Source of the DNA: Gemmatimonas sp.
GTDB lineage: Bacteria; Gemmatimonadota; Gemmatimonadetes; Gemmatimonadales; Gemmatimonadaceae
Length of the DNA: 18,271 nucleotides
NCBI GenBank assembly: GCA_031414535.1
Contig: JANNVQ010000016.1
Location: 1-18,271, forward strand
Reading direction: 5' to 3'
The notes beneath the pieces are model-generated. The model saw nothing but the letters and a program-made list of their open reading frames with translations. It did not search any database and was not told where the DNA came from. A program made the position numbers and the translations under genes. Numbering within the stretch: the stretch's first letter is position 1; the number at the start of each line of letters is the position of its first letter. Positions 931 through 17,109 of the stretch are shown here, one piece after another.

Positions 931-1326
931 CTAGAGCTTTAGCCGAACCAAGCGCTCTCGGATCCATTTCGCCATTGCCGCTTCCGTGAGCGAGCCAGCC
1001 GCCAGCGCCGTCATCACCTGGACGACTTCTGTCTCCGTCGCATCGAGGTCCTTTCCATTCAGTCCGAGAAAGATGACGGACGTCAGGAACGCCGTGCGCT
1101 TGTTCCCGTCGTTGAACGCATGCGCCTTTGCGAGCCCGAATGCGTACGCCGCGGCAAGGGTCGCGTGGTCCGAGTCGGGCTCGTAGTGCGCCTTCTGTTG
1201 CGGACGCGCGAGCGCGGCTTCTAACGCGTTCTCATCGCGGATGCCCGGCAATCCGCCGTGCTCACGCAACTGGTCGAGGTGCGCGGCGTCCACGACGAGC
1301 CGTGGCACCCATCGCAGGGCGGCCAC
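931..1326 (-). CDS. doc: Death-on-curing (Doc/Fic family) type II toxin
   Basis: Doc-type Fic motif HAFNDGNKRTA; N-terminal HGGLPGIRD..LEAALARP; 131 aa; directly downstream of an AbrB-like gene. Confidence 0.92.
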   Translation of the reverse strand: MAALRWVPRLVVDAAHLDQLREHGGLPGIRDENALEAALARPQQKAHYEPDSDHATLAAAYAFGLAKAHAFNDGNKRTAFLTSVIFLGLNGKDLDATETEVVQVMTALAAGSLTEAAMAKWIRERLVRLKL

Positions 1327-1759: not shown

Positions 1760-1865
1760 CGACAGCCGAAGCCGCTGCCTTAACCACACACACCGACTTG
1801 GACAGCGCCGCGCGCGGTATAGTTTCCAGAGTAGCATTCGCCATCTCGCCGCCCACTTCCAAGCT

Positions 1866-2444
1866 ATGCGTCCAATACTCGTTTGCCTCGCCGCGCTCCT
1901 TGCGATCGCCCCGAGGCACATCAACGCCCAAGTCTCGCTGCGTCCCCATCCGAGCGGACGCGCATCGAGTGAGGTCGTCCTCGCGTATCCCCAAGGCCAA
2001 GCCCCGGCTGGCGCCGTCAATGTGTCCATCAAGGTGGACTACGGCGTTCCGCACCTGCGCGGGCGCACGGTGCACGTCGGCGACGTCGTGCCCTACGACG
2101 CGGCCTGGCGCACCGGCGCCAACGCCTCCACCACGCTTACGACCGGCGCGAACCTGCAGATGGGCGGCGTTGCCGTGCCGGCCGGCACCTACGTCGTATA
2201 CACGTTGCCTACTCGGCAAGGCTGGACACTGATTCTGCAGAAGCCCGTCGGACAGTCGGCCACGGCGTACGATGCCACGCATGACGTGGCGCGCATCCCG
2301 TTGCGGCCGTCGACGCTCGCGCAGGCAATCGAAAGCCTCACCATCTGGCTCATCCCCTCGACGGCCACGGATGCCGCGCGCGGCGAGTTTCGCCTGGCGT
2401 GGGGTACCGTCCAGGTCTCGACCGACTGGGTGGTCACTCCATAA
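1866..2444 (+). CDS. DUF2911 domain-containing secreted protein
   Basis: Motifs VDYG.P.LRGR, VPYD..WRTGAN.ST, VPAGTY.VYTLP, WTLIL; signal peptide from ATG 1866 (the longer ORF start at 1656 lies inside attC3). Confidence 0.8.
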   Translation: MRPILVCLAALLAIAPRHINAQVSLRPHPSGRASSEVVLAYPQGQAPAGAVNVSIKVDYGVPHLRGRTVHVGDVVPYDAAWRTGANASTTLTTGANLQMGGVAVPAGTYVVYTLPTRQGWTLILQKPVGQSATAYDATHDVARIPLRPSTLAQAIESLTIWLIPSTATDAARGEFRLAWGTVQVSTDWVVTP

Positions 2445-3538: not shown

Positions 3539-3580
3539 TCAACGGCCGCATTGGAACGCACGCGAGAGCGCCCAGTCACG

Positions 3581-5026
3581 ATGCGACCCATCAATCGAGC
3601 GAGGCCAAGCAAAGGGAGACAATCACTCGTGGCATCTGCTCAGGAACAAACCGCACGTCCCAATCGACTCCGTCGATGCGTACAGCGCGCCGCACTCGTC
3701 TTCGCCGCGAGTGCGGCATGGGCGATCCCGCTCTCAGCGCAGAGCGTGACCCGCAACACCGCTACCGATACGCTCCACCTGGATATCAACGACGTGCAGC
3801 GGCTCGCGATCCGGCAGAATCTGAACCTCTTGGCCACACGACAGGAGTTGTCGATTGCCGCTGGCGCACTTCGTCAGGCGCGCGTCTATCAGTTCAATCC
3901 CGACTTCACGCTGCAAGCCGTAGGAGATGGCGGATCAGATGGACCGTTTGAGCTGTTGCTCACGCAGGAAATTGAGTGGGCAGGCCAGCGCGGACTTCGC
4001 ATCGGCGCGGCACGTGAGGGACAAGTCCGCGCGACCGCATTCGTTCAGAATGCGGCGCGAGTGTCGCTCGCCTCGGCAAGTGTCGGCTTCTACCGGGCAT
4101 TCGCTTCGGAGCGCCGGCTCGAAGTGGCGCGGGATGCTCTCGCGCTCACTGAGCGCCTAATCGCAGCCGTGCGCACGCAGCTCGCTGAAGGCGAAATCAG
4201 CACGATGGAGGCGAACCTGGCCGAAATTGAAGCGGGACGAGCGCGTGGTCGGGTCTTGAGCGCGCAACGCGCTGAACTCGGAGCGGCGTTCGAACTCAAG
4301 CAACTCCTCGGACTGAGACCTGAGACAGCGATTCGACTCGTCTCCGACTCGTTGAACACTTCAAGTCCGCTAGGCAAGCAACCCTCCCCGACCGAGGATT
4401 CGTTAGTCGCACTCGCGTTGGCGCGACGGCCGGACCTCGCAGCGAGCGAAGCGGCGGTACGCGAGATCGAGAAGCTAACGAGCCTCTCGCGCCGCTCGGC
4501 GTTCCCCAACGTGCGCATCGGCGCTGTTGTGGAGCGGGCGGAGAGTGGTGGCTCAGCTGACATCGGGCCCGCAATCGGCTTGAGCATCCCGCTCTTCAAC
4601 CGCAACCAAGGGCTTGTGGACCAACGCCGAGCGCTCACCGAACAGGCTCGACTTGATCAACGCGCCACCGAACTTGGAATCCGAAGCGACGTGCTGGAGT
4701 CCGCTCGAGCGTATCGCACGGCCTCCGAAGAGGTTGCTGTGTTCGAGACGACCGTGGTGCGACCAGCGCGCGCAAACATCGAACTGCTCGAGACGGCCTA
4801 CCGAGCCGGGAAAATTGCATTGCCAACGCTACTGCTGCTTCGCAACCAACTGCTCGACGCGGAGTTCGGCTATTGGGATGCTTGGCTTGCTCAGCGCGAA
4901 GCGTTGGTACGCCTCGAGGCAGCAACTGGTGCGCTTACTCCCACCGCCGCTGCTCTTCAACCACTCAATGCCGCCTCGGTCGACGGACCGACCAAGTCTG
5001 ATTCCTCATCCAGGACTTCCCCGTGA
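3581..5026 (+). CDS. czcC: TolC-family outer-membrane efflux protein (CzcC-like)
   Basis: OEP repeats (ALARRPDL, GLSIPLFNRNQG, AYRAGKI.L..LL); first gene of a C-B-A cluster; start uncertain (TTG 3551 or ATG 3581). Confidence 0.85.
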   Translation: MRPINRARPSKGRQSLVASAQEQTARPNRLRRCVQRAALVFAASAAWAIPLSAQSVTRNTATDTLHLDINDVQRLAIRQNLNLLATRQELSIAAGALRQARVYQFNPDFTLQAVGDGGSDGPFELLLTQEIEWAGQRGLRIGAAREGQVRATAFVQNAARVSLASASVGFYRAFASERRLEVARDALALTERLIAAVRTQLAEGEISTMEANLAEIEAGRARGRVLSAQRAELGAAFELKQLLGLRPETAIRLVSDSLNTSSPLGKQPSPTEDSLVALALARRPDLAASEAAVREIEKLTSLSRRSAFPNVRIGAVVERAESGGSADIGPAIGLSIPLFNRNQGLVDQRRALTEQARLDQRATELGIRSDVLESARAYRTASEEVAVFETTVVRPARANIELLETAYRAGKIALPTLLLLRNQLLDAEFGYWDAWLAQREALVRLEAATGALTPTAAALQPLNAASVDGPTKSDSSSRTSP

Positions 5027-6216
5027 TCACGCTGACGACATTTAGGCGGGTGCACAGCGCCTCGCCCAGCTTCTCCATACTCGTACTTGTAGGAGCACTC
5101 GCGATTGGCGCCTGCGGCGGTGGCGATGCCGCACCCGCTGAAACAGCCGCAGCAGAGGAACACGCGGGTGAAGAAGGAGTGGTCGTGCTCGACACGGCGG
5201 CGATTCGGCTCGGCGGCATTCAGGTAGGCGAAGTCCAATCAGTCACCACAACCGCCTTGGCTGTGACCGGCTCCATCACCTTCGACGCTGACCGAGTCAG
5301 CCACGTCGGTTCGCGCTCCAACGGACGCATCGTCGCGGTGCGAAGCGACCTCGGTGCGCAGGTTGCGCGCGGTCAAGCACTTGCTACGCTCGAAAGCGTC
5401 GAAGTGGGACAGATTCGTGCCGAAGAGCGCGAAGCTGAGGCGCTCCTGAAGATTGCGCAAGAGAACTACGCGCGTGAACAACGGCTCGCCGAGCAAGGCA
5501 TCTCGAGCCGCAAGGAACTGCTCGAGGCGGAGGCAATGCTGCGCCGAGGAGAAGCGGCGCTGCACAGCGCCGAGGACCGGCTGCAAGTCCTCGGTGCGTC
5601 GCACGACCACGGTGCGGGTGGTGAGTTCACACTCGTAGCGCCCTTCGCGGGCGTTGTCGTCGCGCGCGATGCCAGTCTCGGTGAGATGGCTACGCCGGCT
5701 GACACGCTCTTCACCGTGGCGGACCTCTCCGAAGTATGGATTGAACTCGACATCTTTGAGCGTGACCTCGCTCGCGTCAAGCGTGGCCAGTCAGTCGCAG
5801 TGCTCGTCTCGGCGTACCCGAGTCGCAGCTTTCCCGGCCGCATTGTTTACGTTGGCGACGTACTCGATCCCGCAAAGCGCACGGTCCGCGCGCGCGTTGA
5901 GATTCCGAATCGTGATGCCGCACTCAAGCCGGGGATGTTCGCCACGGCCAACATCCAAGTCGGCGGCGGCGGACCTCCGATGGCCGTCGTGCCACAGGAC
6001 GCCGTGCAAACGGTCGAGGGCAAGCTCGTCGTATTCGTGCCCGGCGACGCACCCGGAGAGTTTCGTACCGTCGCGGTCGAGGTGGGTCCCACCACCGACG
6101 GCAACCGCATCGTCATCCTGTCGGGCATTGCGCCAGGCAGTCGCGTCGTCACCGTAGGGGCCTTCGCGCTTCGATCCGAGCTCAGTAAGGGCGAGATCGG
6201 GGAGCACGGACACTGA
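5023..6216 (+). CDS. czcB: RND periplasmic adaptor (CzcB-like membrane fusion protein), lipoprotein
   Basis: Lipobox LAIGAC; APFAGVV, LFTVADLSEVW, LDPAKRTVRAR, LKPGMFA motifs; GTGA overlap with czcC. Confidence 0.9.
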   Translation: MITLTTFRRVHSASPSFSILVLVGALAIGACGGGDAAPAETAAAEEHAGEEGVVVLDTAAIRLGGIQVGEVQSVTTTALAVTGSITFDADRVSHVGSRSNGRIVAVRSDLGAQVARGQALATLESVEVGQIRAEEREAEALLKIAQENYAREQRLAEQGISSRKELLEAEAMLRRGEAALHSAEDRLQVLGASHDHGAGGEFTLVAPFAGVVVARDASLGEMATPADTLFTVADLSEVWIELDIFERDLARVKRGQSVAVLVSAYPSRSFPGRIVYVGDVLDPAKRTVRARVEIPNRDAALKPGMFATANIQVGGGGPPMAVVPQDAVQTVEGKLVVFVPGDAPGEFRTVAVEVGPTTDGNRIVILSGIAPGSRVVTVGAFALRSELSKGEIGEHGH

Positions 6217-6217
6217 T

Positions 6218-9200
6218 ATGCGCTCAGTCATCAGCTTCGTATTAAAGCAGCGGCTGCTCGTCCTCGGCTTGACGGCGATGCTCGTCGGCGTGGGAATCTG
6301 GAGCGCCCTCCGGCTGCCAATCGACGCAGTACCCGACGTCACGAACGTGCAGGTGCAAATCAACACAAACGCTGCAGCGCTACCTCCCACGGAGGTGGAG
6401 CGGCAGGTCACGCTACCCGTAGAGCTTGCGATGTTCGGCCTTCCGAACCTCGAAGAGATTCGTTCCATCTCAAAGTTTGGCCTGTCGCAAGTGACCGTGG
6501 TCTTCGAGGAAGGCACGGACATCTATTTCGCACGACAACAAGTGCAGGAGCGCTTGCAGCAGGCTCGCGAGGAGATTCCCGCAGGCTACGGAACGCCCGA
6601 GATGGGTCCCATCTCAAGCGGACTCGGCGAGGTATTCCAGTACTCTATTGAAGCGGACTCAGGTGCAGGCGTTGATGCCACGGAACTCAGGACCTTGCAA
6701 GACTGGCTCGTGGCACCACAGCTCCGCGCGGTCAAGGGAGTAGCTGAGGTCAATGCATTCGGTGGTTTCGAGAAGCAGTACCAGGTGCTCGTGCGCCCGG
6801 ATGCGCTCGTGCAGTACGACCTGACGCTCCAGCGCGTCCTCGACGCCATTGCATCAAACAACCAGAACGCGGGCGGCGGATATATCACGAAAGGCGCTGA
6901 GCAACTCGTGATTCGCGGAGTCGGTCAAGTTCAGGACCTCGACCAGATTCGTAGCATCGTCGTATCGAGTCGCGGCGGCACGCCAGTGCTTGTCAGTGAT
7001 ATCGCGGACGTCGTGATTGGTTCGACAATCCGTCAGGGCGCGGTGACCAAGGACGGAACTGGCGAAGTCGTGACCGGCATCGTGATGATGCGAATGGGTG
7101 AGAACTCGCGCACCGTCGTGCAGTCCGTCAAGGAGCGCTTCGCCGTGGCTGCGAGCAGCCTTCCACCGGGTGTGCGCCTCGTACCGTTTTACGATCGCGC
7201 GGAGCTCGTCAACCGCACGATCAAGACGGTGGAGAAGAATCTTATTGAGGGCGCTGTGCTGGTTGTTGTGGTGCTCTTCCTATTGCTGGGAAACATTCGT
7301 GGCGCGCTCATTGTGGCCGCGGCGATTCCGCTTTCGATGTTCTTCGCGCTCAGCGGAATGTTGAAGGCAGGCATCGCGGGCAGTCTAATGAGCCTCGGCG
7401 CAATTGATTTCGGCCTCGTGGTTGATGGGTCTGTCGTGATGGTCGAGAACTCGATGCGCCGTCTGGGCCACCGCAAGCCAGATGAAAGCTTCTTGCAGAC
7501 GGTGCTTGATTCCTGCGCTGAGGTTGCGCGTCCGATTCTCTTCGGTGTTGGCATCATCATCATCGTGTACTTGCCCATCCTCACGCTTGAGGGCGTTGAG
7601 GGCAAGATGTTCAGACCAATGGCGCTCACCGTAGTCTTTGCGCTCGTGGGCTCGTTGTTACTGACCTTCCTTCTCACACCCGTGCTCATTTCGCTCTTCT
7701 TGAAGGGCAAGGTTGAGGAGAAGGACGTTTGGCTGATGCAGAAGGCCAAGGCTATCTATGAGCCGGCGTTGGCGTGGACGCTCGCGCATAGCCGTCGTGT
7801 GATTACTGGTGCCGCCGCGGCGTTCGCGCTTGCAGTGGTCGCCGTGCCCTTCCTTGGGTCCGAGTTCATCCCGCGGCTGGATGAAGGCTCGTTCGCATTG
7901 CAGGTGCTTCGGCTCCCAAGCGTATCCCTCGAAGAATCGGTGCGTCAGACGACGCAACTGGAACAAGTGCTGATCGAGACGTTTCCCGATGAGGTGATTG
8001 ACGTCGTGGCCAAGACGGGACGCCCGGAGATTGCGACGGACCCGATGGGCGTGAACATCTCGGACATCTTCGTGATCCTCGCGCCGCCGGACAAATGGAC
8101 AAAGGCTGAGTCGAAAGCCGACCTCGAGCTGCAGATGTCAGAGGCATTGGGCAGGATTCCCGGTCTCGTGTTCAGCTTCAGCCAGCCGATTGAGTTGCGA
8201 GTAAACGAACTCATCGCCGGTGTGCGCAGCGACCTCGCCATCAAGATCTACGGCGAAGATCTAGGCCAGCTGAGCCAGACCGCCGCACAGGTGGTAGCCG
8301 CAGTCTCTCAGCTGGAGGGGGCAACGGGCTTCAAGGCACAGCAGCTGGAGGGAATGCCGCAGCTCCAAATCACTGTGTTGCCGGCCCAGCTGGCGCGTTA
8401 TGGCATCAATTCTGCTGATGTAATGCAGGTGGTGGAGGCGTTAGGAGGGGCGGAAGTTTCGCAGGTGCTTGAAGGCCAGCGTCGCTTCGCCCTAACCGTG
8501 CGCTTGCCGGCCGAGGTGCGCCAGAACGCCGCTACCATCAGCAACATCCTCGTTAGTGCGCCCACGGGCGAGCGTGTACCGCTGGGTACCCTTGCGCGGG
8601 TTGAAGAAGTGAATGGTCCGGCGGAGATCAGCCACGAGAATGGCTCTCGACTGGTCATCGTCGAAGGCAATGTGCGCGGGCGCGACATCGGAGGCTTTGT
8701 CGCTGACGTGCGGGCGCTCTTCGATGATGGCGTGATTGAGTTGCCGACTGGCTATCGTCCGGAATACGGTGGGCAGTTTGAGAATCTCGAACGGGCGAGT
8801 AAGCGGCTTACCCTGGTGGTGCCGCTGTCGCTGTTGCTGATCTTCCTGATGTTGTTTGCTACGTTCAACTCGCTGCGGCAGGCGGCGCTGGTGTTCACGG
8901 GCATTCCACTCGCCGCAGTGGGCGGTGTCTTTGCGCTCTTGCTGCGCGGGATGCCCTTCTCGATTTCCGCAGGCGTCGGTTTTATCGCGCTCTTCGGCGT
9001 CGCGGTGCTCAACGGCCTCGTGATGGTTTCATACATCAATGAATTGCGGCAGCACGGGCGCCCGCTGGTGGATGCAGTGCGCGAAGGTGCGATGACGCGT
9101 TTGCGTCCCGTGCTGATGACCGCGTTGGTGGCGAGTCTCGGATTCATTCCGATGGCGCTCTCAAGCGGTGCGGGCGCCGAGGTGCAGCGGCCGTTAGCGA

Positions 9201-9370
9201 CGGTGGTCATCGGTGGCCTTTTCACGGCGACCCTGCTCACGCTGCTCGTGTTGCCGCTGCTGTATATGCTCTTCGAGCGCGCCCAGGACGAGCCTGATGG
9301 GACGCCCTCGGGGACGGACGCGCAGGATCACTTCGCACCCGACGCCGTCGGGGGAGGAAGGCCGCAATGA
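6218..9370 (+). CDS. czcA: Heavy-metal efflux RND transporter, CusA/CzcA family (divalent, CzcA-like)
   Basis: 1050 aa; [39 protein letters not shown] (TM4 D/D/E), [35 protein letters not shown]. Confidence 0.95.
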   Translation: [1050 protein letters not shown]

Positions 9371-9702
9371 AACTCGTCATCGCGTTTATTCAGCCATTTA
9401 TGGCGCCTGACGTTGTACAGGCACTCCATCGAGTGCCCGGGCTCACGGGCGCTACCTTCAGCGAAGTGAAGGGATTCGGTCGCGGTCGAGCCACTCTCGG
9501 CGCGAACGCCGAAGCTCTCTACGGCACCGTGGACAAGTTGAGAATCGAAGTGGTGGTCAGCGACGATCTTGAAGACCAAGTCGTACGAGCGATTCGCACG
9601 GCGGCGCACACAGGCAATCGAGGAGATGGGAAGATTTACGCCGTCGCGGTCACTCGGGCCCTGCGTATTGCCACTGGGGAGGAGGGAGACAATGCGGTAT
9701 GA
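9367..9702 (+). CDS. P-II family signal transduction protein
   Basis: MKLVIAFIQPF, EVKGFGR, KLRIEVVV, AHTGNRGDGKIY P-II signatures; ATGA overlap with czcA. Confidence 0.9.
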   Translation: MKLVIAFIQPFMAPDVVQALHRVPGLTGATFSEVKGFGRGRATLGANAEALYGTVDKLRIEVVVSDDLEDQVVRAIRTAAHTGNRGDGKIYAVAVTRALRIATGEEGDNAV

Positions 9703-12163
9703 TGACGCAGCAGCACGCACCATTCGCCTCGACCTCCCCTTGCTGTTGCCCGAGGTGCAGGACCTCCGGGACGCTTGCGTGGAGCGTCTGGTCGCACTGA
9801 TAGAACAACGGGCCGGCGTGCAGAGTGTACACGTTGTTGCGCTAGGCGCGGAGGAATGCGACGTCGCAGACAAGAATGGCGATATGCGATCGGCGGAGCC
9901 CACGCAGTCGCAACTCTGCCTGCACTACAACCCCGATCAGCTCTCGCTCGAGCACATCACAGCGCTGGCGCGATCCGCCGGCGCTGAGGTGACAGAACGT
10001 TATGGACACTTGATCCTACCATTCCGTGCGATCAGCAGTCAGGATGGCGGAACGCGCTTGGAAACGGAGTTGCGCTCGCTAGAAGGAGTGACCGCGGCCG
10101 TTGTCAACTTGGCGGGACAGGTGGCGCGCGTTGAGTTCGACCGCAAGCGAGTAGATAAAGCGACGATTGAAGCACGTATGAAAACAGTCAGTGCTCCAGC
10201 TGACGCGGCCGCTCTAGAAGAAAGCGGTTGGTACACGCGCAACCGCGAACTCGCGTGGAGCTTGGCATCCGGAGTGCTGCTCACGGGCGCGTGGCTTCTC
10301 GAGAAGTTCACGGTTGCGCCACGCGCACTTTCCATCGGCATTTTTGTCGCTGCGTACGTATTTGGCGCTCGCGACAACGTCGGCCACTTCATCGGTGACC
10401 TGCGGCGAGGAAAGTGCCACTTCAATATCGACCTCTTGATGGTCGTCGCGGCGCTCGGTGCCGCGATACTTGGCGAGTGGGTGGAGGGCGCGCTTCTCCT
10501 CTTCTTGTTCAGTCTCGGACACGCCCTTGAGCACTATGCATTGGGACGTGCACGCAATGCCATCGCGGCTCTTACTGAACTCGCTCCGCAAACAGCGATT
10601 GTTCAGCGCGATGGGCGCGAGACAGCGATACCCATTGCTGAGGTCCGCTCGGGTGATCGCGTGGTCGTGAAGCCAGCCGAGCGAATCCCAGTTGACGGCA
10701 TCGTGCGTGAAGGACGCTCGGCCGTGAATCAGGCACCCATCACCGGCGAGAGCGTGCCAGTAGATAAGGCACCGGACGAGACGGTGTTCGCTGGCTCAGT
10801 AAATGGTGATGGCGCGCTCGTCGTAGAAGTGACGGCGGCCATCGGCGACCGCACACTCGATCGCGTCATCAAGCTCGTCGCGGAGGCGCAGACGCAGAAG
10901 GCGCCCACTCAGCTGTTCACTGACCGCTTTGAGCGCATCTTCGTTCCGATCGTGCTCGTGGCCGACTTGTTGCTCATCGTCCTGCCGCCTTTGCTCGGAT
11001 TCTGGACGTGGAGCGAGTCGTTTTATCGAGGGATGGCACTTCTTGTGGCAGCATCCCCCTGCGCACTCGCACTCGGGACTCCAGCCGCTGTTCTCTCTGG
11101 CATCGCGCAAGCGGCTCGAAGGGGCGTGCTCATCAAGGGCGGCGCGTATCTCGAGGTACTTGGTTCCATCGATACGCTGGCTTTGGATAAGACGGGGACG
11201 ATTACGCGTGGCGAGCCTGAGGTGACAGATCTTCGTCCGTTTGACGGCGTGGATGAAAACCGCCTGCTCGCGATGACGGCCGCCGTGGAGAAGCGTTCGC
11301 AACATCCTTTGGCGCGTGCGATCATCAAAGCGGCCGAGCAACGTGGGCTCGAAGTACCCGCGGCCGGCGATTTGGAGTCGGTAACGGGACGCGGAATCCG
11401 CTCGACGGTTGACGGTGCTCGCGTTGAAGTGGGACGACTGCTGATGTTCGAGGAGACTGGTGCACAAGTGCCGGTAAGCGTTCGTGCGAATGTTGCAACA
11501 TTGGAGACGGCAGGACGGACCACCGTTGTTGTGCGCCATCGAGTGGTGTCAGCTGGTGCAACTTCGATAGACGATGGCAATGGCTGGCTCGGGGTCATCG
11601 GTGTCGCTGACGAACCGCGTCCTGGCGTGAGAGAAACACTTGATCGCCTGCGCGCTGTGGGCGTCAAGCGCATCGTGATGCTCACGGGTGACAATGCCGG
11701 CGTTGCCAAGGCCGTGGGCGATGCTGTCGGCGTCACGAACGTGCGCGCTGGACTGTTGCCGGAGGACAAGGTGAAGGCCATCCAAGAGTTGGCTCAGCTC
11801 GGGCGCGTGGCGATGGTGGGCGATGGCGTGAATGACGCGCCGGCGCTTGCGCACGCGACCGTTGGAATTGCGATGGGCGGTGCGGGCACTGCCGCTGCGC
11901 TCGAGACGGCGGACGTGGCGCTGATGGGTGACGATTTGGGACGTCTGCCCTTCGCAATCGGCTTGAGTCGCACAGCCCGCGGCATCATCAAGCAGAATCT
12001 CTTTGTCTCACTCGGAGTCATCCTGCTCTTGGTGGTGGCCACAACGACCGGCCTTGTCGGCATCGGAGGAGCGGTCGTGATGCACGAGGGAAGCACCTTG
12101 GTCGTGATTGCGAACGCATTGAGATTGTTGCGCTACGGGCCATCCGAGGATGCAGCCACGTGA
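9692..12163 (+). CDS. czcP: Heavy-metal P1B-4 type ATPase (CzcP-like)
   Basis: TGES, SPC (ASPCAL), DKTGT, HP, GDGVNDAPAL and HEGST motifs; N-terminus LDLPLLLP...CVERL resembles CzcP as I recall it; ATG 9692 follows GGAGGAGG. Confidence 0.85.
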   Translation: MRYDDAAARTIRLDLPLLLPEVQDLRDACVERLVALIEQRAGVQSVHVVALGAEECDVADKNGDMRSAEPTQSQLCLHYNPDQLSLEHITALARSAGAEVTERYGHLILPFRAISSQDGGTRLETELRSLEGVTAAVVNLAGQVARVEFDRKRVDKATIEARMKTVSAPADAAALEESGWYTRNRELAWSLASGVLLTGAWLLEKFTVAPRALSIGIFVAAYVFGARDNVGHFIGDLRRGKCHFNIDLLMVVAALGAAILGEWVEGALLLFLFSLGHALEHYALGRARNAIAALTELAPQTAIVQRDGRETAIPIAEVRSGDRVVVKPAERIPVDGIVREGRSAVNQAPITGESVPVDKAPDETVFAGSVNGDGALVVEVTAAIGDRTLDRVIKLVAEAQTQKAPTQLFTDRFERIFVPIVLVADLLLIVLPPLLGFWTWSESFYRGMALLVAASPCALALGTPAAVLSGIAQAARRGVLIKGGAYLEVLGSIDTLALDKTGTITRGEPEVTDLRPFDGVDENRLLAMTAAVEKRSQHPLARAIIKAAEQRGLEVPAAGDLESVTGRGIRSTVDGARVEVGRLLMFEETGAQVPVSVRANVATLETAGRTTVVVRHRVVSAGATSIDDGNGWLGVIGVADEPRPGVRETLDRLRAVGVKRIVMLTGDNAGVAKAVGDAVGVTNVRAGLLPEDKVKAIQELAQLGRVAMVGDGVNDAPALAHATVGIAMGGAGTAAALETADVALMGDDLGRLPFAIGLSRTARGIIKQNLFVSLGVILLLVVATTTGLVGIGGAVVMHEGSTLVVIANALRLLRYGPSEDAAT

Positions 12164-12248
12164 GGGAGCCAACGAACAGCGCGGGCTATTTGCGACTTGC
12201 CCTCGACGCAGAGGCGACTCTCGCGGGACCAGCTCCGAACCAGGAACC

Positions 12249-12290
12249 TTGACAGAATCCATAAGTTAGTACATCCTAACTTATGGATTC
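12249..12290 (+). promoter_or_regulatory. Sigma70 promoter (TTGACA-N17-CATCCT) overlapped by a perfect 15-bp inverted-repeat operator
   Basis: TTGACA 12249-12254; GAATCCATAAGTTAG (12255-12269)-TACATC-CTAACTTATGGATTC (12276-12290) covers the -10 and ATG 12283. Confidence 0.8.
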
Positions 12291-13578
12291 CACCGCAAGA
12301 ACACCTCAAGCGAGCCTTTCACTTCGTCCTTTGATTGTGAGCACGCTCGCCGTCGCCGTAATCGTCTCCGCCTGCGGCGAGCCGTTCTTCCCCGACGCGC
12401 CCCGCGACGATTCCATTCTCGAAGGTCCCATCGCTGGGCTCACCGCGCCTCAGCACGCGCTCTTCTTGCGAGGCGACGCCGAATTCGGACGCGCCTTCGC
12501 AGCGACCGACGGTCTCGGGCCACTCTTTATCGCACAGTCCTGCGACGCTTGTCACGCGGGCGACGGCAAAGGCCATCCAGTCTTCGACATCACGCGCTTT
12601 GGACGCTACGAGGGCGCGACCTTCGATCCGATGATTGCTGACGGCGGTCCGCAGCTACAGAATCGCGCCATCCTCGGATACCTCGCCGAAACTCGGCCAT
12701 CCGAGTCCACCGTGATGGCGCGCTTCACACCGCCGGCCGTCACAGGGTTGGGCCTCTTGGAAGCCGTTGATGATTCGAGCATTCTCGCGCTTGCCGATTC
12801 GGCCGACCTCAATGCAGATGGGATCTCCGGGCGCGCGAGTTGGGTGACAGCGTCGCCGTTCATTGATGCGCTCGCGGCCGAAGGAGTGCGCGGAACTGCG
12901 GGAACTCCCGCGCGTCATCTCTCGTGGTCGGGACGATATCTGGGACGCTTCGGCAAGAAGGCGACCACCATCACGCTCCGCCATCAGACGGTGAATGCCT
13001 ATTCCGAGGATATGGGCCTGACCACCGATGATCATCCGGACGATCTGGTACTTCCTGGATTGCCAGGCTCAAGCGGAGACGGCGTCACCGATCCCGAAGT
13101 TGGCTCCGGTATCGTCAGTAGCGTGGTCTTTTACCTCCGAACACTGCGCCCGCCGCCGCGACGCGATGCAGCCAATTCAGAAGTAATCGCTGGGCGCCAG
13201 CGATTCATCGAGATTGGCTGCGCGAACTGCCACGTGATGACGATGCGCACTGGGAGGTCCTCAATCGCAGCGCTCGATCGGATCGAGTTTGAGCCGCTCA
13301 CCGATTTGTTGTTGCACGATATGGGTCCCGATCTCGACGATGGCTACACGGAGGGGAACTCCACGTCGTCCGAGTGGCGCACTGCGCCGCTCTGGGGCAT
13401 TGGCTTGGCCGAGCGCGCGACCGGTGGCACGCAGTTCCTGCTGCACGACGGCCGCGCTCGCTCATTGCGCGCCGCGATTGGATTTCACGGCGGCGAAGCG
13501 TCCGCAAGTCGCGCGGCATTCAATGCCCTCTCAACTGCCGAGCAAGAGCGGCTCCTGCGCTACTTGAGGTCGCTATGA
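12283..13578 (+). CDS. Di-haem oxidoreductase family (DHOR/DUF1111-like) c-type cytochrome lipoprotein
   Basis: Two CxxCH motifs (CDACH, CANCH); DGLGPLF, D.NADGISGR, GRFGKKA, TDLLLHDMG, EWRTAPLWGIG, LHDGRAR; lipobox VSAC. Confidence 0.88.
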   Translation: MDSTARTPQASLSLRPLIVSTLAVAVIVSACGEPFFPDAPRDDSILEGPIAGLTAPQHALFLRGDAEFGRAFAATDGLGPLFIAQSCDACHAGDGKGHPVFDITRFGRYEGATFDPMIADGGPQLQNRAILGYLAETRPSESTVMARFTPPAVTGLGLLEAVDDSSILALADSADLNADGISGRASWVTASPFIDALAAEGVRGTAGTPARHLSWSGRYLGRFGKKATTITLRHQTVNAYSEDMGLTTDDHPDDLVLPGLPGSSGDGVTDPEVGSGIVSSVVFYLRTLRPPPRRDAANSEVIAGRQRFIEIGCANCHVMTMRTGRSSIAALDRIEFEPLTDLLLHDMGPDLDDGYTEGNSTSSEWRTAPLWGIGLAERATGGTQFLLHDGRARSLRAAIGFHGGEASASRAAFNALSTAEQERLLRYLRSL

Positions 13579-14030
13579 CGATTCCGCGACGCGCATTCTT
13601 AGTTCGCGCACAACAGGTCGCACTGGGAGCCTGCGCGCTCGGTGCCCGCGCAGCCTTGCCGATGATTGGCATTGGATGCGCTTCCGTCCCGTATGTGATT
13701 GGGGAACGCCGCGACAACGAAGTGCACCTGCCATTCACGGCGCTCGACAAGAACGGCCGAGCATTAGTGGAAGTACCCGAGTTCGACCTCCCCATCTTTG
13801 TACGACGCAGTGCGGGCGGGACGACTACTGCGCTCTCAACAGAGTGCACACATCGTGGCTGCGAGGTGGAGCCCTCTACCGATCGGCTGGTCTGTCCCTG
13901 CCACGGCAGCGAGTACAATCTGGAAGGTGCCGTGCTTCAAGGACCGGCGGAGCGACCGCTGCTTCGCTTCGCGGTCCGTGAGCTGCCAGACCGCCTCGTC
14001 ATTGAGCTAACCGCGCGAGGCAACCTCTAA
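13575..14030 (+). CDS. Rieske [2Fe-2S] protein with Tat-like signal
   Basis: CTHRGC and CPCHGS boxes, GPAERPL; N-terminal PRRAFL; ATGA overlap with the di-haem gene gives the start at 13575. Confidence 0.9.
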   Translation: MTIPRRAFLVRAQQVALGACALGARAALPMIGIGCASVPYVIGERRDNEVHLPFTALDKNGRALVEVPEFDLPIFVRRSAGGTTTALSTECTHRGCEVEPSTDRLVCPCHGSEYNLEGAVLQGPAERPLLRFAVRELPDRLVIELTARGNL

Positions 14031-15238
14031 TGCGCTTTGACATTGTCACGCGACTTGCTGTGCACGGCGCATTGGCGCTCGTGGCTTTTGCAGCAGGCAC
14101 GCCTCTACGCGCGCAGGATGACTCGTCGTCCGTGCAGGGGAGCATCTACCAGCGCCCATTCATCTCGTCATCAGGCCGCACGGCGATTGGAGGATACGTC
14201 GAAGCAAACGCACTCTACACACGAGAGGAAGGCATCGGGCCTGGCCTCTCGATGGAGTTGCGCCGCTTCAATATTTTCCTTTTCTCATCCATCGGTTCGA
14301 GAGTTCGATTTCTCTCAGAGCTCGAGTTCGAGCACGGCACGCAAGAGATTGCTCTCGAGACTGCGATCGTCGATTTTCGAGTGTCGTCCGCGCTGGTGCT
14401 TCGCGCGGGCATCCTGCTGCCGCCCGTAGGCGCGTTCAACCAGAATCACGACGGCCCGAGATGGGAATTCGTCGACCGGCCGCTCGTCTCAACGGAGATC
14501 ATCCCGTCCACGCTCTCGGAAGTCGGCTTTGGCGTGAACGGTCGCGTCTCGCCAGCGTCGGGACTGACGATCACGTATGACGCATACCTCACGAACGGAC
14601 TCGGCGAAGGCGTCGTCCTCAATTCAACCGGGCGCACGCATCTCGCGAGCGGTAAACGTGCGGGGCAGTTCGCCGGCGACGACAATGGAGTGCCCGCGCT
14701 ATCCGGGCGGCTGGCGCTGCGCTCACGGAGACTTGGTGAGGCTGGAGTTTCGTGGTACGGAACCACCTACAACACCTTTCGGCTAGACGGTGCGGAGATT
14801 GACGAACGCAGAGGCCTTTCCTTACTCGCCGTCGATGTGTCCACGGTGTTGCCACGTGCGATTGAGGTCCGAGGCGAGGCCGCGCTTGCTCGGATTGAGC
14901 TTGCCCCGGGAATGGTCGATGTACTTGGCGACGATCAATGGGGCGCGCATGTGGATGTCATCGCGCCCGTATATCGTGTAGCGGGCGGCCCTTTCCGCGG
15001 AGGTACTGTAAACTTCATCACGCGTCTTGAGTACGTGGATTTCAACGTTGGGCACTTCGCTTCCACAGGGGGCGTCATCGGCGATGACCGCACGGCCGTC
15101 ACTCTCGGCGCCAGCGTCCGCCCCGTAGCGGGCGCGGTGCTCAAGTTGAATTATCGGCGAGAGTGGGCGCACGACATTCTGCGGAACGCGGCCACGAGGT
15201 CTGGCGCATTGCAGCTTGGCGTCGCTACGTACTTCTAG
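14030..15238 (+). CDS. Putative outer-membrane beta-barrel/porin-like protein
   Basis: Signal peptide ending LRA-Q; amphipathic strands (RFLSELEFEH, LRAGILLPPVG); C-terminal LGVATYF BAM-type signal; TAATG coupling to the Rieske gene. Confidence 0.72.
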   Translation: MRFDIVTRLAVHGALALVAFAAGTPLRAQDDSSSVQGSIYQRPFISSSGRTAIGGYVEANALYTREEGIGPGLSMELRRFNIFLFSSIGSRVRFLSELEFEHGTQEIALETAIVDFRVSSALVLRAGILLPPVGAFNQNHDGPRWEFVDRPLVSTEIIPSTLSEVGFGVNGRVSPASGLTITYDAYLTNGLGEGVVLNSTGRTHLASGKRAGQFAGDDNGVPALSGRLALRSRRLGEAGVSWYGTTYNTFRLDGAEIDERRGLSLLAVDVSTVLPRAIEVRGEAALARIELAPGMVDVLGDDQWGAHVDVIAPVYRVAGGPFRGGTVNFITRLEYVDFNVGHFASTGGVIGDDRTAVTLGASVRPVAGAVLKLNYRREWAHDILRNAATRSGALQLGVATYF

Positions 15239-15272
15239 TTTCGTCACGTACCGCAATCACAACACAGCGAAT

Positions 15273-15734
15273 ATGAAGGTCGACCTCTCAACGACGCTCC
15301 CCTGCACCTTCGAACAGGCGGTTGCGCAGGTTCAGACGACTCAACTCCTAGAGTATGTGGCCCGCCCTCTCGTTCGCTTCTCCCCCGCGGGCGGAGGCAC
15401 GTTTCCACCGGCGTGGACGGTCGGAACTCATTGGGTCAATCTTTGGCTCGTCGGCTTCTTGCCTCTGGGCAGACAGGCAATCGTCATCACATTCCCGATG
15501 GTCGAGTCTGGCTTCGCATTACGCGACGCTGGGCACAGTGCACTCATTCACACCTGGGACCATCTCATAACCATTGAGCGCCGTCGCGACGCTGTGATCT
15601 ATCGCGATCAAGTTGACGTCCGCGCTGGAGTTCTTACTCCATTCGCATGGCTGTTCGCGTCGATCTTCTACCGGCATCGGCAGCGTCGGTGGAGAAGGCT
15701 GGTTGATGGCAGCTTTGACTACGGCACGGCTTAA
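15273..15734 (+). CDS. Hypothetical protein, possibly SRPBCC/START-like fold
   Basis: ATG 15273; WDHLITI...YRDQVDVRAG...FYRHRQRRW pattern seen in small SRPBCC-like proteins; recognition by eye only. Confidence 0.55.
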   Translation: MKVDLSTTLPCTFEQAVAQVQTTQLLEYVARPLVRFSPAGGGTFPPAWTVGTHWVNLWLVGFLPLGRQAIVITFPMVESGFALRDAGHSALIHTWDHLITIERRRDAVIYRDQVDVRAGVLTPFAWLFASIFYRHRQRRWRRLVDGSFDYGTA

Positions 15735-15763
15735 TTCACTGTTTAACCGAGAGATTGTTTGTA

Positions 15764-16219
15764 ATGCGTATTCCCCCGGTGTTGATGCTTGTTGCGGCCG
15801 TCTCCCTGAGTTTCATTGCGGCTCGCATTGATCCTCTTGCAAGTTCTTCCGTTGAGCTTCAGGTGCTCGGCGCGCTAATTGCCATCGTCGGGTCGGCTAC
15901 GGCCTTGGCAGGCGTCTTGGCGTTCCGTCGCCAGCGAACCACTGTCGATCCCCGATATCCAGAACGCGCGCGCGCACTTGTTGCCGACGGCATATATCGC
16001 TGGACGCGCAATCCGATGTATGTGGGATTTGTGTGCGTGGGGATTGGCGCAGCAGTTGCGCTGGGATCACTTCTCGCACTTGCGGGCCCCGCTGCTCTGG
16101 CCCTGTACTTAGATCGCGTACAAATTCCTGCTGAAGAACGCGCGCTGCAGGAGCGCTTCGGCCAGAGCTTTCATTCGTACGTCCTTTCCGTCCGACGGTG
16201 GCTCGGACGGCGGAACTAG
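15764..16219 (+). CDS. Isoprenylcysteine carboxyl methyltransferase (ICMT/PEMT) family membrane protein
   Basis: TTVDP, LVADGIYRWTRNPMYVG, EERAL..RFG..F..Y...VRRW motifs. Confidence 0.88.
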   Translation: MRIPPVLMLVAAVSLSFIAARIDPLASSSVELQVLGALIAIVGSATALAGVLAFRRQRTTVDPRYPERARALVADGIYRWTRNPMYVGFVCVGIGAAVALGSLLALAGPAALALYLDRVQIPAEERALQERFGQSFHSYVLSVRRWLGRRN

Positions 16220-16453
16220 AGCTACGGACCGGCAATCGGCGTCCCGTGCGGATCATTGGTAGCATTGCCGACCGGTACAGCCATTCGTTTGATGACTAGG
16301 TCCGACGCCGCGAACTGGAGGAGCTGAGCGCCGGCACATGCCCGCCCTGTTCGAAGATTTCTCGTGCAGAGCTATGTGCGGACGAGGCCCGGCCGTTGTG
16401 GACGCTAGCTCATTGAGGGTTCGGAAGAAATCTTGGAGGCGCGATTGCGCGCG

Positions 16454-16549
16454 GCATAACGAAGCTTGCTGGCTGACAGCCACGCTATTGTAGCGTCCGC
16501 TTCGCGGCCGCATTTTATGGAGTGTCTGCAGCAGAAGCACACGTTACAC
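16454..16549 (+). repeat. attC site 4 (96 bp, short variant)
   Basis: R'' GCATAAC, GCTTGCTGGCTGACAG / CTGCAGCAGAAGC, R' GTTACAC; shortened central region with two mini-hairpins. Confidence 0.88.
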
Positions 16550-16615
16550 GGGCTCGCCACTGGCTCCGCGGTGGCCGCAGTTGCGCCCCGCAGCCTTCTG
16601 AGACAGGTTCCAATC

Positions 16616-16819
16616 ATGGCCGACGCCCCCGACATCCGCGACGACGCGAAGCGACTCGTCGACCAGCTCCCCAAAGGGGCGGGCTGGGATGATCTCGCGT
16701 ATGAGGTCTATGTGCGCCAGGCCATCGAACAGGGCCTCGCGGATGCGGCGGCCGGTCGCACCGTCGACCACGACACCGCTCTCGCTCGCGTCCGCGCGCG
16801 CATTCGTCGTCCGGCCTAG
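16616..16819 (+). CDS. Putative antitoxin (ParD-like, 67 aa)
   Basis: AKRLVDQLP...WDDLAYEVYVRQAIEQGLADAAAGRTVDH pattern of ParE-associated antitoxins; overlaps the toxin start by 1 nt; candidate promoter TTGCGC-N17-CAGGTT at 16581-16609. Confidence 0.78.
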   Translation: MADAPDIRDDAKRLVDQLPKGAGWDDLAYEVYVRQAIEQGLADAAAGRTVDHDTALARVRARIRRPA

Positions 16820-17109
16820 TGCTCCCGTTCCGCTGGACGGAGCGCGCGGTCACGGACCTCGCGGGCATTGCCGACTTCATCAGCCGTACCTCTGACATCT
16901 ACGCCGAAGGCGTGGTCGCCCACATCGACTATCGCCTGCAGTTGCTCCGTGCGCATCCGCTCATGGGCAAGCACGCCCCAGAAGCCGAGGATCTCGACGT
17001 GCGCGAGTTGGTCATCGAGAATCATCGCGTGTTCTACAAAGTGCACGTGGACGCCATCGAACTCCTGGCCATCGTGCACGGCCGTCAGCAAACACCGCGC
17101 GCGTTCTAG
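16819..17109 (+). CDS. RelE/ParE family type II toxin
   Basis: WTERAVTDL..IADFI, L..HPLMG, RELVIENHRVFY, IELLAIVHGRQ; 96 aa. Confidence 0.88.
   Translation: MLPFRWTERAVTDLAGIADFISRTSDIYAEGVVAHIDYRLQLLRAHPLMGKHAPEAEDLDVRELVIENHRVFYKVHVDAIELLAIVHGRQQTPRAF

Follow-up and report, generated by a model that had tools for sequence, protein, structure and literature searches.

The DNA analysed here, a stretch of 18,271 nucleotides from Gemmatimonas sp. (positions 1 to 18,271 of contig JANNVQ010000016.1, assembly GCA_031414535.1; hereafter the window), is contig C16 of a source genome that is 3.7 Mb in size and 98.4% complete. It contains three consecutive genes, which encode a DHOR-family di-haem c lipoprotein, a Rieske [2Fe-2S] protein and a predicted outer-membrane beta-barrel protein. 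These genes are referred to as the trio, and their coordinates are shown in Table 1. A preliminary description of this DNA, made from its letters, proposed that the three open reading frames are coupled by ATGA and TAATG overlaps, are preceded by their own promoter and operator, and encode an envelope module that changes the redox state of a metal for uptake or detoxification. Both overlaps are present. The operator is also present, as an inverted repeat with a 6-base centre. The promoter is only partly borne out: an exact TTGACA hexamer precedes the operator, but a scan with the sigma-70 consensus detects 0 promoter sites in 12000-16400. The new finding is that this DHOR-Rieske-barrel cassette carries an MntR-family operator that is common to manganese importer genes.

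Table 1. Positions of the trio, its control elements and the other features mentioned in the text (window positions unless a contig of the source genome is given)
Feature	Position	Strand	Remarks
DHOR-family (PF06537) di-haem c lipoprotein gene	12283..13578	+	431 aa
Rieske [2Fe-2S] protein gene	13575..14030	+	151 aa; twin-arginine signal and lipobox Cys35 (predicted twin-arginine translocation (Tat) lipoprotein)
Outer-membrane beta-barrel gene (predicted, 16-stranded)	14030..15238	+	402 aa; OprO/OprP-like fold, C-terminal Phe
DHOR/Rieske junction	13575-13578		ATGA overlap
Rieske/barrel junction	14028-14032		TAATG overlap
DtxR/MntR-family operator	12259..12286	.	inverted repeat, 11-base arms, core TTAG-N6-CTAA; overlaps DHOR start codon
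-35-like hexamer TTGACA	12249..12254	+	exact match; matching -10 weak
Operator-to-start regions	window 12249-12285; source genome C40:49876-49912; C14:14709-14746		
DtxR/MntR repressor gene of the source genome	C5:96151-96585		144 aa
Two further small Rieske genes of the source genome	C5:122278-125463		back to back
czcC-, czcB-, czcA-like, PII-like and P1B ATPase genes	3551-12163		upstream of the trio
DUF2911 gene	about 1851-2444		
Fic/Doc gene	931-1326		
ParE-type toxin gene with small upstream partner	16526-17109		
DUF8410/SRPBCC-like gene	15273-15734		Atlas lead
Isoprenylcysteine methyltransferase-like gene	15755-16219		

The trio is a fixed three-gene unit, of which the content, order and coupling are conserved. 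When genome loci are anchored on the barrel (the best 80 of 550), the genes are arranged in the order DHOR-Rieske-barrel in 77 of the 80 loci, and the remaining three are truncated at the edge of a contig. Two of the 77 have a split DHOR frame. When metagenome loci are anchored on DHOR (the best 80 of 515), the Rieske gene is located next to the DHOR gene in all 67 loci with room for it, and the Rieske and barrel genes are both present in all 58 loci with room for both. The genomes that contribute to these counts are partly related, so that they do not count as independent samples, and the locus sets contain at least one locus twice. Thus, the gene-neighbourhood check named in the preliminary description is borne out with either anchor. 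The trio loci span Gemmatimonadota, many Bacteroidota and Ignavibacteria, and cultured strains of Niastella, Hymenobacter, Flavisolibacter and Haliscomenobacter carry them. The closest named relatives of the barrel of the window are from Gemmatimonadaceae. The distribution within Gemmatimonadota is patchy, because 64 of 201 genomes give any barrel match and 20 give a match at E 1e-50 or better. Seventeen of the 19 other genomes with strong matches were inspected; 15 contain the trio, one contains a split barrel gene without partners, and one has a contig that is too short. One further genome retains a deleted remnant of the trio beside troABC-like genes. Among DHOR-based loci for metal acquisition, the trio is a real, widespread and so far undescribed variant that is linked to manganese regulation. 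No published account of it is found in a literature search, from the coverage of which most subscription journals and supplements are excluded.

The operator of the trio is a box of the DtxR/MntR family, with the core TTAG-N6-CTAA, and covers the DHOR start codon. Because this family consists of metal-sensing repressors, the link to metals that was proposed earlier is supported. The perfect core is located upstream of DHOR in 49 of the 69 genome loci with room, as compared with 1 of 687 AT-matched control windows, and in 52 of the 69 metagenome loci. It is detected anywhere in only 8 of the 16 loci of the Gemmatimonadota phylum sample. The upstream neighbour is a divergent DtxR-family gene in 71 of 125 loci with room. 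This plain count of perfect cores was adopted for operator conservation in place of a matrix; the matrix made from the five boxes of the source genome transfers poorly to AT-rich Bacteroidota (19/69 at 10 bits). A strict operator pattern detects 9 sites in five genomes, as compared with 3 for the reversed control, with one at an unrelated gene, and these hits are not used for the regulon count.

The source genome was scanned for this operator with a matrix trained on four boxes. Five sites are detected at 24-35 bits, among which the trio box scores top, and the next best site scores 16. The fifth box, which is outside the training set, precedes an Nramp (mntH) gene, whose frame matches Pfam-confirmed Nramps at 59-83%. 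The other boxes precede the trio, a ZIP importer gene, and a TonB receptor gene and a divergent DtxR-family repressor gene. Because the operator is common to mntH and the DtxR-family repressor gene, the regulon is probably of the MntR type and not of the Fur/iron type of imelysin-DHOR operons. The preliminary description cited iron regulation for DHOR loci, but the regulation of this locus points to manganese. A Fur-consensus site with four or fewer mismatches is not found on the trio contig. TTGAC is located 8-14 bases ahead of four of the five boxes in the source genome. The promoters of the trio, ZIP and mntH genes have the start codon within about 7 bases after the operator and lack an evident ribosome-binding site, so that the transcripts of these genes may be leaderless. 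A sequencing run checked for expression contains only short fragments of relatives and says nothing either way.

The ligands of the repressors were compared with those of characterised proteins, for which Met10/Cys102 of iron-sensing DtxR and Asp8/Glu99 of manganese-sensing Bacillus subtilis MntR are given in PMC4805248. The repressor of the source genome has Asp17 and Glu109 at the positions of Asp8 and Glu99 of MntR, and thus shows the ligands of MntR. The 95 repressors encoded near trio or barrel loci have Asn (79) or Asp (13) at the first site, which is unread in 3, and 92 of them have Glu at the second site; Met or Cys is found at these sites in none of the 95. In five trio-bearing Bacteroidota genomes, the perfect box is located upstream of all four canonical mntH genes, none of five feoB genes (one with a one-mismatch site) and not the single divergent Nramp gene, when three weak Nramp matches are excluded. 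These ligands and boxes suggest that manganese is likely the regulatory signal. Importers near the trio in 96 loci, one of which is counted twice, are Nramp in 5, FeoB in 3, ZIP in 3 and TroABC in 1. The repressor of the source genome lacks the FeoA domain that its relatives at trio loci carry.

The DHOR protein matches Pfam PF06537 with 219.6 bits (E 8e-65), as compared with a cut-off of 22. Its CxxCH motifs at residues 87-91 and 313-317 and its predicted lipid site, Cys31, are conserved without exception in all 68 aligned relatives, indicating that the first gene encodes a lipoprotein with two CxxCH motifs, as was read from the sequence earlier. The predicted model (pLDDT 81.9) has the two-domain di-haem c fold of the bacterial cytochrome c peroxidase (bCcP)/MauG superfamily. 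It matches MauG, hydrazine synthase chain C, YhjA, BccP, a MauG-like copper protein and BthA with Z 14.1-15.2 and root-mean-square deviations of 3.3-6.3 over 225-261 residues at 17-20% identity, and the next row has Z 8.0. Foldseek agrees with these CcP/MauG-family matches. A sequence search of solved structures gives no match for DHOR alone, and its profile gives only single-haem-motif matches. When the DHOR profile is aligned with that of 17 CcP-family proteins by HHalign, the probability is 98.9.

According to this profile alignment, which is not a residue-level superposition, Lys225 occupies the position of the inter-haem Trp, Gln235 that of the distal Gln, Asp243 that of the catalytic Glu with a two-residue shift, and His402 that of the axial Met. 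A first HHalign run aligned only the C-terminal domain correctly, and a broader profile was needed; an early guess that Gln126 and Glu136 form the distal pair was dropped after the broader alignment. The mapping of the Trp, Gln and Glu positions is moderate evidence, because a cut-down profile pair scores a probability of 5.8. Gln235, Asp243 and His402 are invariant in 68 of 68 relatives. Position 225 is Lys or Arg in all 68 trio-type DHORs, whereas it is Trp in 89 of 106 more distant DHORs. When 88 rows are placed in a quick tree, all 18 trio DHORs share one branch with 7 close representatives (SH-aLRT 99), and one of these 7 retains Trp. Thus, DHOR shares the predicted fold of MauG, BthA, YhjA and hydrazine synthase chain C and retains a distal Gln and an acid, but differs from these proteins in three places: His replaces the axial Met/Tyr, Lys the inter-haem Trp and Asp the catalytic Glu. 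The residues of a canonical cytochrome c peroxidase (inter-haem Trp, distal Glu and a His/Met haem) are not found, and the Tyr/His six-coordinate haem of the bis-Fe(IV) enzymes MauG and BthA is not found either, because His402 is at the axial position; Tyr-to-His variants lose the bis-Fe(IV) feature, as described for BthA in PMC6405878. In the model, haem 1 is likely an open peroxidase-like site with a distal Gln/Asp, and haem 2 is likely His/His-coordinated. The DHOR/DUF1111 family is widespread: 5,842 representative proteins match it at E 0.001 or better. On plasmid pTT27 of Thermus thermophilus HB8, a distant DHOR (37% identity) follows haem/iron ATP-binding cassette (ABC) transporter genes, and no Rieske or barrel partner is annotated there.

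The second protein matches the Rieske family PF00355 (E 6e-12) and has a twin-arginine-type motif and a lipobox Cys, in agreement with the earlier assignment of an exported [2Fe-2S] protein. The motif is present in 62 of 65 relatives, and the lipobox Cys is invariant. The Rieske protein of the source genome keeps both disulfide Cys residues, as well as Ser and Tyr of box II; among its relatives Ser is found in 65 of 66, Tyr in 17 and the disulfide in 30. The nearly invariant Ser suggests a fairly high-potential cluster. A cluster of this kind could act as a reductant of Mn(III/IV), whereas Fe(III) oxides would be out of its reach. Among solved structures, the best matches are small soluble Rieske domains; one of these, 5cxm, we take to be the envelope protein PetC3. 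A bc-type cytochrome b (PF00033) is not found in the 98%-complete genome, while 8 controls are positive, in agreement with the missing cytochrome b partner of the preliminary description. The NCBIfam models of bc/b6f Rieske proteins score far below the cut-off. A role of the trio in a respiratory bc complex is rejected, because no bc-type cytochrome b is found in the genome. Elsewhere in the source genome, a further pair of small stand-alone Rieske genes with twin-arginine-like signals is arranged back to back.

The third protein gives no Pfam or NCBIfam match and no match in a sequence search of solved structures. Its AlphaFold2 model (pLDDT 91.5) is a barrel of 16 strands, and the C-terminal Phe is present in 88 of 89 aligned sequences. 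The structure prediction thus agrees with the assignment of a beta-barrel ending in Phe, and the protein is predicted to be a 16-stranded porin. The best Foldseek matches are OprO/OprP of Pseudomonas aeruginosa (E 4e-12, TM 0.63-0.64), which are porins of the same 16-strand type, but the identity is 10-11%, and the protein does not match Pfam Porin_O_P; this label is attached to 17% of the members in one Atlas cluster set. OprP uses an arginine ladder, according to the title of its structure entry, whereas the conserved charges of the barrel lean acidic, and on the lumen side, as assigned by strand parity, 12 acidic and 9 basic positions are conserved. A porin-cytochrome conduit of the MtrAB type is not indicated, because such conduits have a large barrel around a multihaem wire, whereas the barrel of the trio has only 16 strands and its partner is a di-haem protein. 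A second branch of the barrel family (L135-L152 and L154-L156; about 27-40% identity) is located with a flavin mononucleotide (FMN)-binding protein, a small membrane protein and ApbE, in 20 loci. These genes replace DHOR and Rieske, and the perfect operator core is present in 0 of 21 such loci. The barrel family thus seems to be tied to two kinds of periplasmic redox module. The FMN-binding/ApbE cluster type is not mentioned in the accessible part of PMC8238504. In a distant relative of the barrel that is encoded between a DtxR gene and feoB (L157 4986-6257), an N-terminal CxxCH is predicted.

It is probable that the trio is an aid of some kind to manganese uptake under starvation. According to the mechanism that we put forward tentatively, and that may well need revision, the trio would reduce Mn(III/IV) to Mn(II) for the importers. 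Low manganese would relieve repression by the MntR-like repressor and switch the trio on. The predicted porin would then admit manganese species to the periplasm, the Rieske and di-haem lipoproteins would exchange electrons, and these lipoproteins would reduce oxidised manganese to Mn(II), which would be imported by MntH and ZIP. The electrons would be drawn from the periplasmic cytochrome pool, because the operon contains no quinol-oxidising subunit. Reduction is favoured over oxidation for two reasons: the importers of the regulon are all carriers of divalent ions, and Mn(III/IV) could be reduced by a high-potential Rieske centre. A more specific version is rather doubtful. In it, the trio would be a dedicated assimilatory manganese reductase: under manganese starvation, a specific porin would let Mn(III) complexes or oxide colloids through to an enzyme of the CcP fold that lacks Trp, has a His/His haem and receives electrons from Rieske.

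Several observations weigh against the proposed reductive manganese uptake by the trio. The electron source is not encoded in the operon, and the potential of the Rieske cluster probably varies, because the disulfide is missing in 36 of 66 sequences. The charge of the barrel is only mildly acidic (27 acidic and 18 basic conserved positions). The known members of the fold of DHOR are mostly peroxide-using enzymes, and DHOR retains a distal Gln and an acid. Multicopper oxidases, which are oxidative enzymes, are encoded near the trio in 9 of 96 loci. Most loci contain no importer within the flank, the first ligand site of the neighbouring repressors is Asn and not Asp in 79 of 95, and PgMntR binds both manganese and iron (PMC4805248), which leaves room for iron sensing. 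FeoB is not found in the source genome, and therefore its Nramp and ZIP proteins may also carry Fe(II). Finally, the function of the cassette is read from sequences and predicted models, and the related genomes that support it are not independent samples.

The main rival explanation, which we regard as unlikely, is that DHOR is a periplasmic peroxidase fed by Rieske and replaces manganese-based antioxidant defence at times of manganese shortage, while the barrel is a separate MnoP-like channel for free Mn(II). The superoxide dismutase of the source genome shows Mn-type residues, and the matches of the DHOR model to MauG, bCcP, YhjA, BthA and the MauG-like copper protein at Z 14-15, together with the retained distal Gln and acid, are consistent with this explanation. 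The inter-haem Trp is missing from BthA, and when an external donor is supplied, H2O2 is still reduced by the His/His variant Y463H of this enzyme (PMC6405878); peroxidase activity of DHOR is therefore compatible with both the loss of Trp and His/His coordination. In Leptospira, genes for two-haem 'thiol oxidoreductases', one of which lies between imelysins, are induced by H2O2 (PMC7567364). However, a peroxidase leaves unexplained why the barrel never parts from the redox pair, the genome encodes a separate CCP_MauG-family protein, and the catalytic Glu position is occupied by Asp with a two-residue shift. It is less likely that the trio serves iron, by reducing or oxidising it for uptake through FeoB, Nramp or ZIP, in the manner suggested for the imelysin-DHOR and IrpAB loci. 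The known DHOR loci have a link to iron (PMC3143127; bioRxiv 072470), FeoB is encoded near the trio in 3 of 96 loci, and both the failure to find FeoB in the source genome and the binding of Fe(II) by PgMntR mentioned above would fit. These points are opposed by the repressor ligands, none of which are of the Met/Cys iron type in the 95 repressors, by the box, which marks mntH and not feoB in the five Bacteroidota genomes, and by the presence of one separate Fur-family gene in the source genome. Moreover, one P. gingivalis FeoB is a known manganese importer (PMC4805248).

Oxidation of Mn(II) or Fe(II) with peroxide by the DHOR/Rieske pair, so that the metal is trapped in the periplasm before uptake, is improbable. 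The peroxidase-like haem pocket and the multicopper oxidases near the trio would suit it, but the importers of the regulon carry divalent ions. In addition, imelysin (PF09375) is not found anywhere in the genome (98% complete), whereas the same search is positive in 4 control genomes, in agreement with the absence reported in the preliminary description, and imelysin and Ftr1 are matched by none of the neighbour-cluster representatives that were scanned. It is very improbable that the trio is part of the adjacent czcCBA/P1B-ATPase detoxification system, although the flanking DNA encodes CzcA in 19 and a P1B ATPase in 12 of the 96 loci, a Haliscomenobacter plasmid shows the same order czcA, czcB, P1B ATPase and trio close to a DUF2911 gene, and no terminator-like site is called between the ATPase gene and the trio. 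The trio has its own repressor box, which is common to importers, and CzcA or P1B is located directly upstream in only 6 of 125 loci. DtxR/MntR repressors shut importers off when metal is plentiful, and the detoxification role considered earlier is therefore unlikely for an operon under such a repressor. The co-location fits shared carriage on metal islands.

The trio DHOR is a member of the DHOR family with the CcP/MauG fold, and the trio is not an imelysin-DHOR operon, a canonical peroxidase, a MauG or a bc complex. It resembles the imelysin-DUF1111/DHOR-imelysin-DUF1513 operons (P. aeruginosa PA4370-PA4373; Leptospira LruB) in that a PF06537 di-haem protein is encoded in a metal-regulated envelope operon, and these operons have been proposed to aid metal uptake (PMC3143127; bioRxiv 072470). 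The trio differs in that imelysin is absent and a Rieske lipoprotein and a porin fill the partner places, in that its operator is of the MntR type and not Fur, and in that its DHORs form their own branch with Lys or Arg in place of the usual Trp. SomB1-IrpAB-Ftr1 of Synechococcus elongatus PCC 7942 is similar to the trio in that a porin and a c-type cytochrome are co-regulated with a permease. PF06537 is present in S. elongatus in a control search, in a protein that is presumably IrpB. A role of this system in reductive uptake has been proposed (PMC9080828), but it is regulated by iron starvation, uses IrpA and Ftr1, and contains no Rieske protein. By analogy, the trio would work in the way proposed for SomB1-IrpAB-Ftr1, with its pore in the role of MnoP. 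MnoP of the MnoP-MntH system of Bradyrhizobium japonicum, which is compared by role only, is an outer-membrane channel needed for manganese uptake under scarcity (PMC9334652; PMC6011978). It differs from the barrel in that no redox partners are described in the text of these sources, and B. japonicum mntH is controlled by a Fur-family protein, according to the title of a reference in PMC6011978.

Much environmental manganese is oxidised. The known uptake routes, namely MntH, ABC, ZIP, MnoP and MnoT (PMC9334652), handle manganese that is already available. If the trio is such a dedicated manganese reductase, it would make oxidised manganese available to aerobic bacteria of soil and water, and the DHOR family, for which roles are only proposed in the literature covered, would gain its first defined reaction. 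Because the cassette has a clear operator and is carried by cultured strains, both the function of DHOR and envelope redox acquisition of manganese become directly testable.

Upstream of the trio, the window contains czcC-, czcB- and czcA-like genes for resistance-nodulation-division (RND) efflux, a PII-like gene and a P1B heavy-metal ATPase gene, and a DUF2911 gene is also present. The recurrence of the order czcA, czcB, ATPase and trio on the Haliscomenobacter plasmid suggests that the trio and the czc/P1B genes are carried together on metal islands in different phyla. The metal cluster lies between a Fic/Doc gene on one side and a ParE-type toxin gene, which has a small upstream partner, on the other, and this is in keeping with an island. 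The two genes downstream of the barrel gene, a DUF8410/SRPBCC-like gene and an isoprenylcysteine methyltransferase-like gene, are rejected as parts of the trio, because they recur only in the nearest relative. At three other loci (L128, L131 and L132), genes for a small Tat multicopper oxidase and a ZIP-like protein precede the trio, in two of them behind a DtxR gene.

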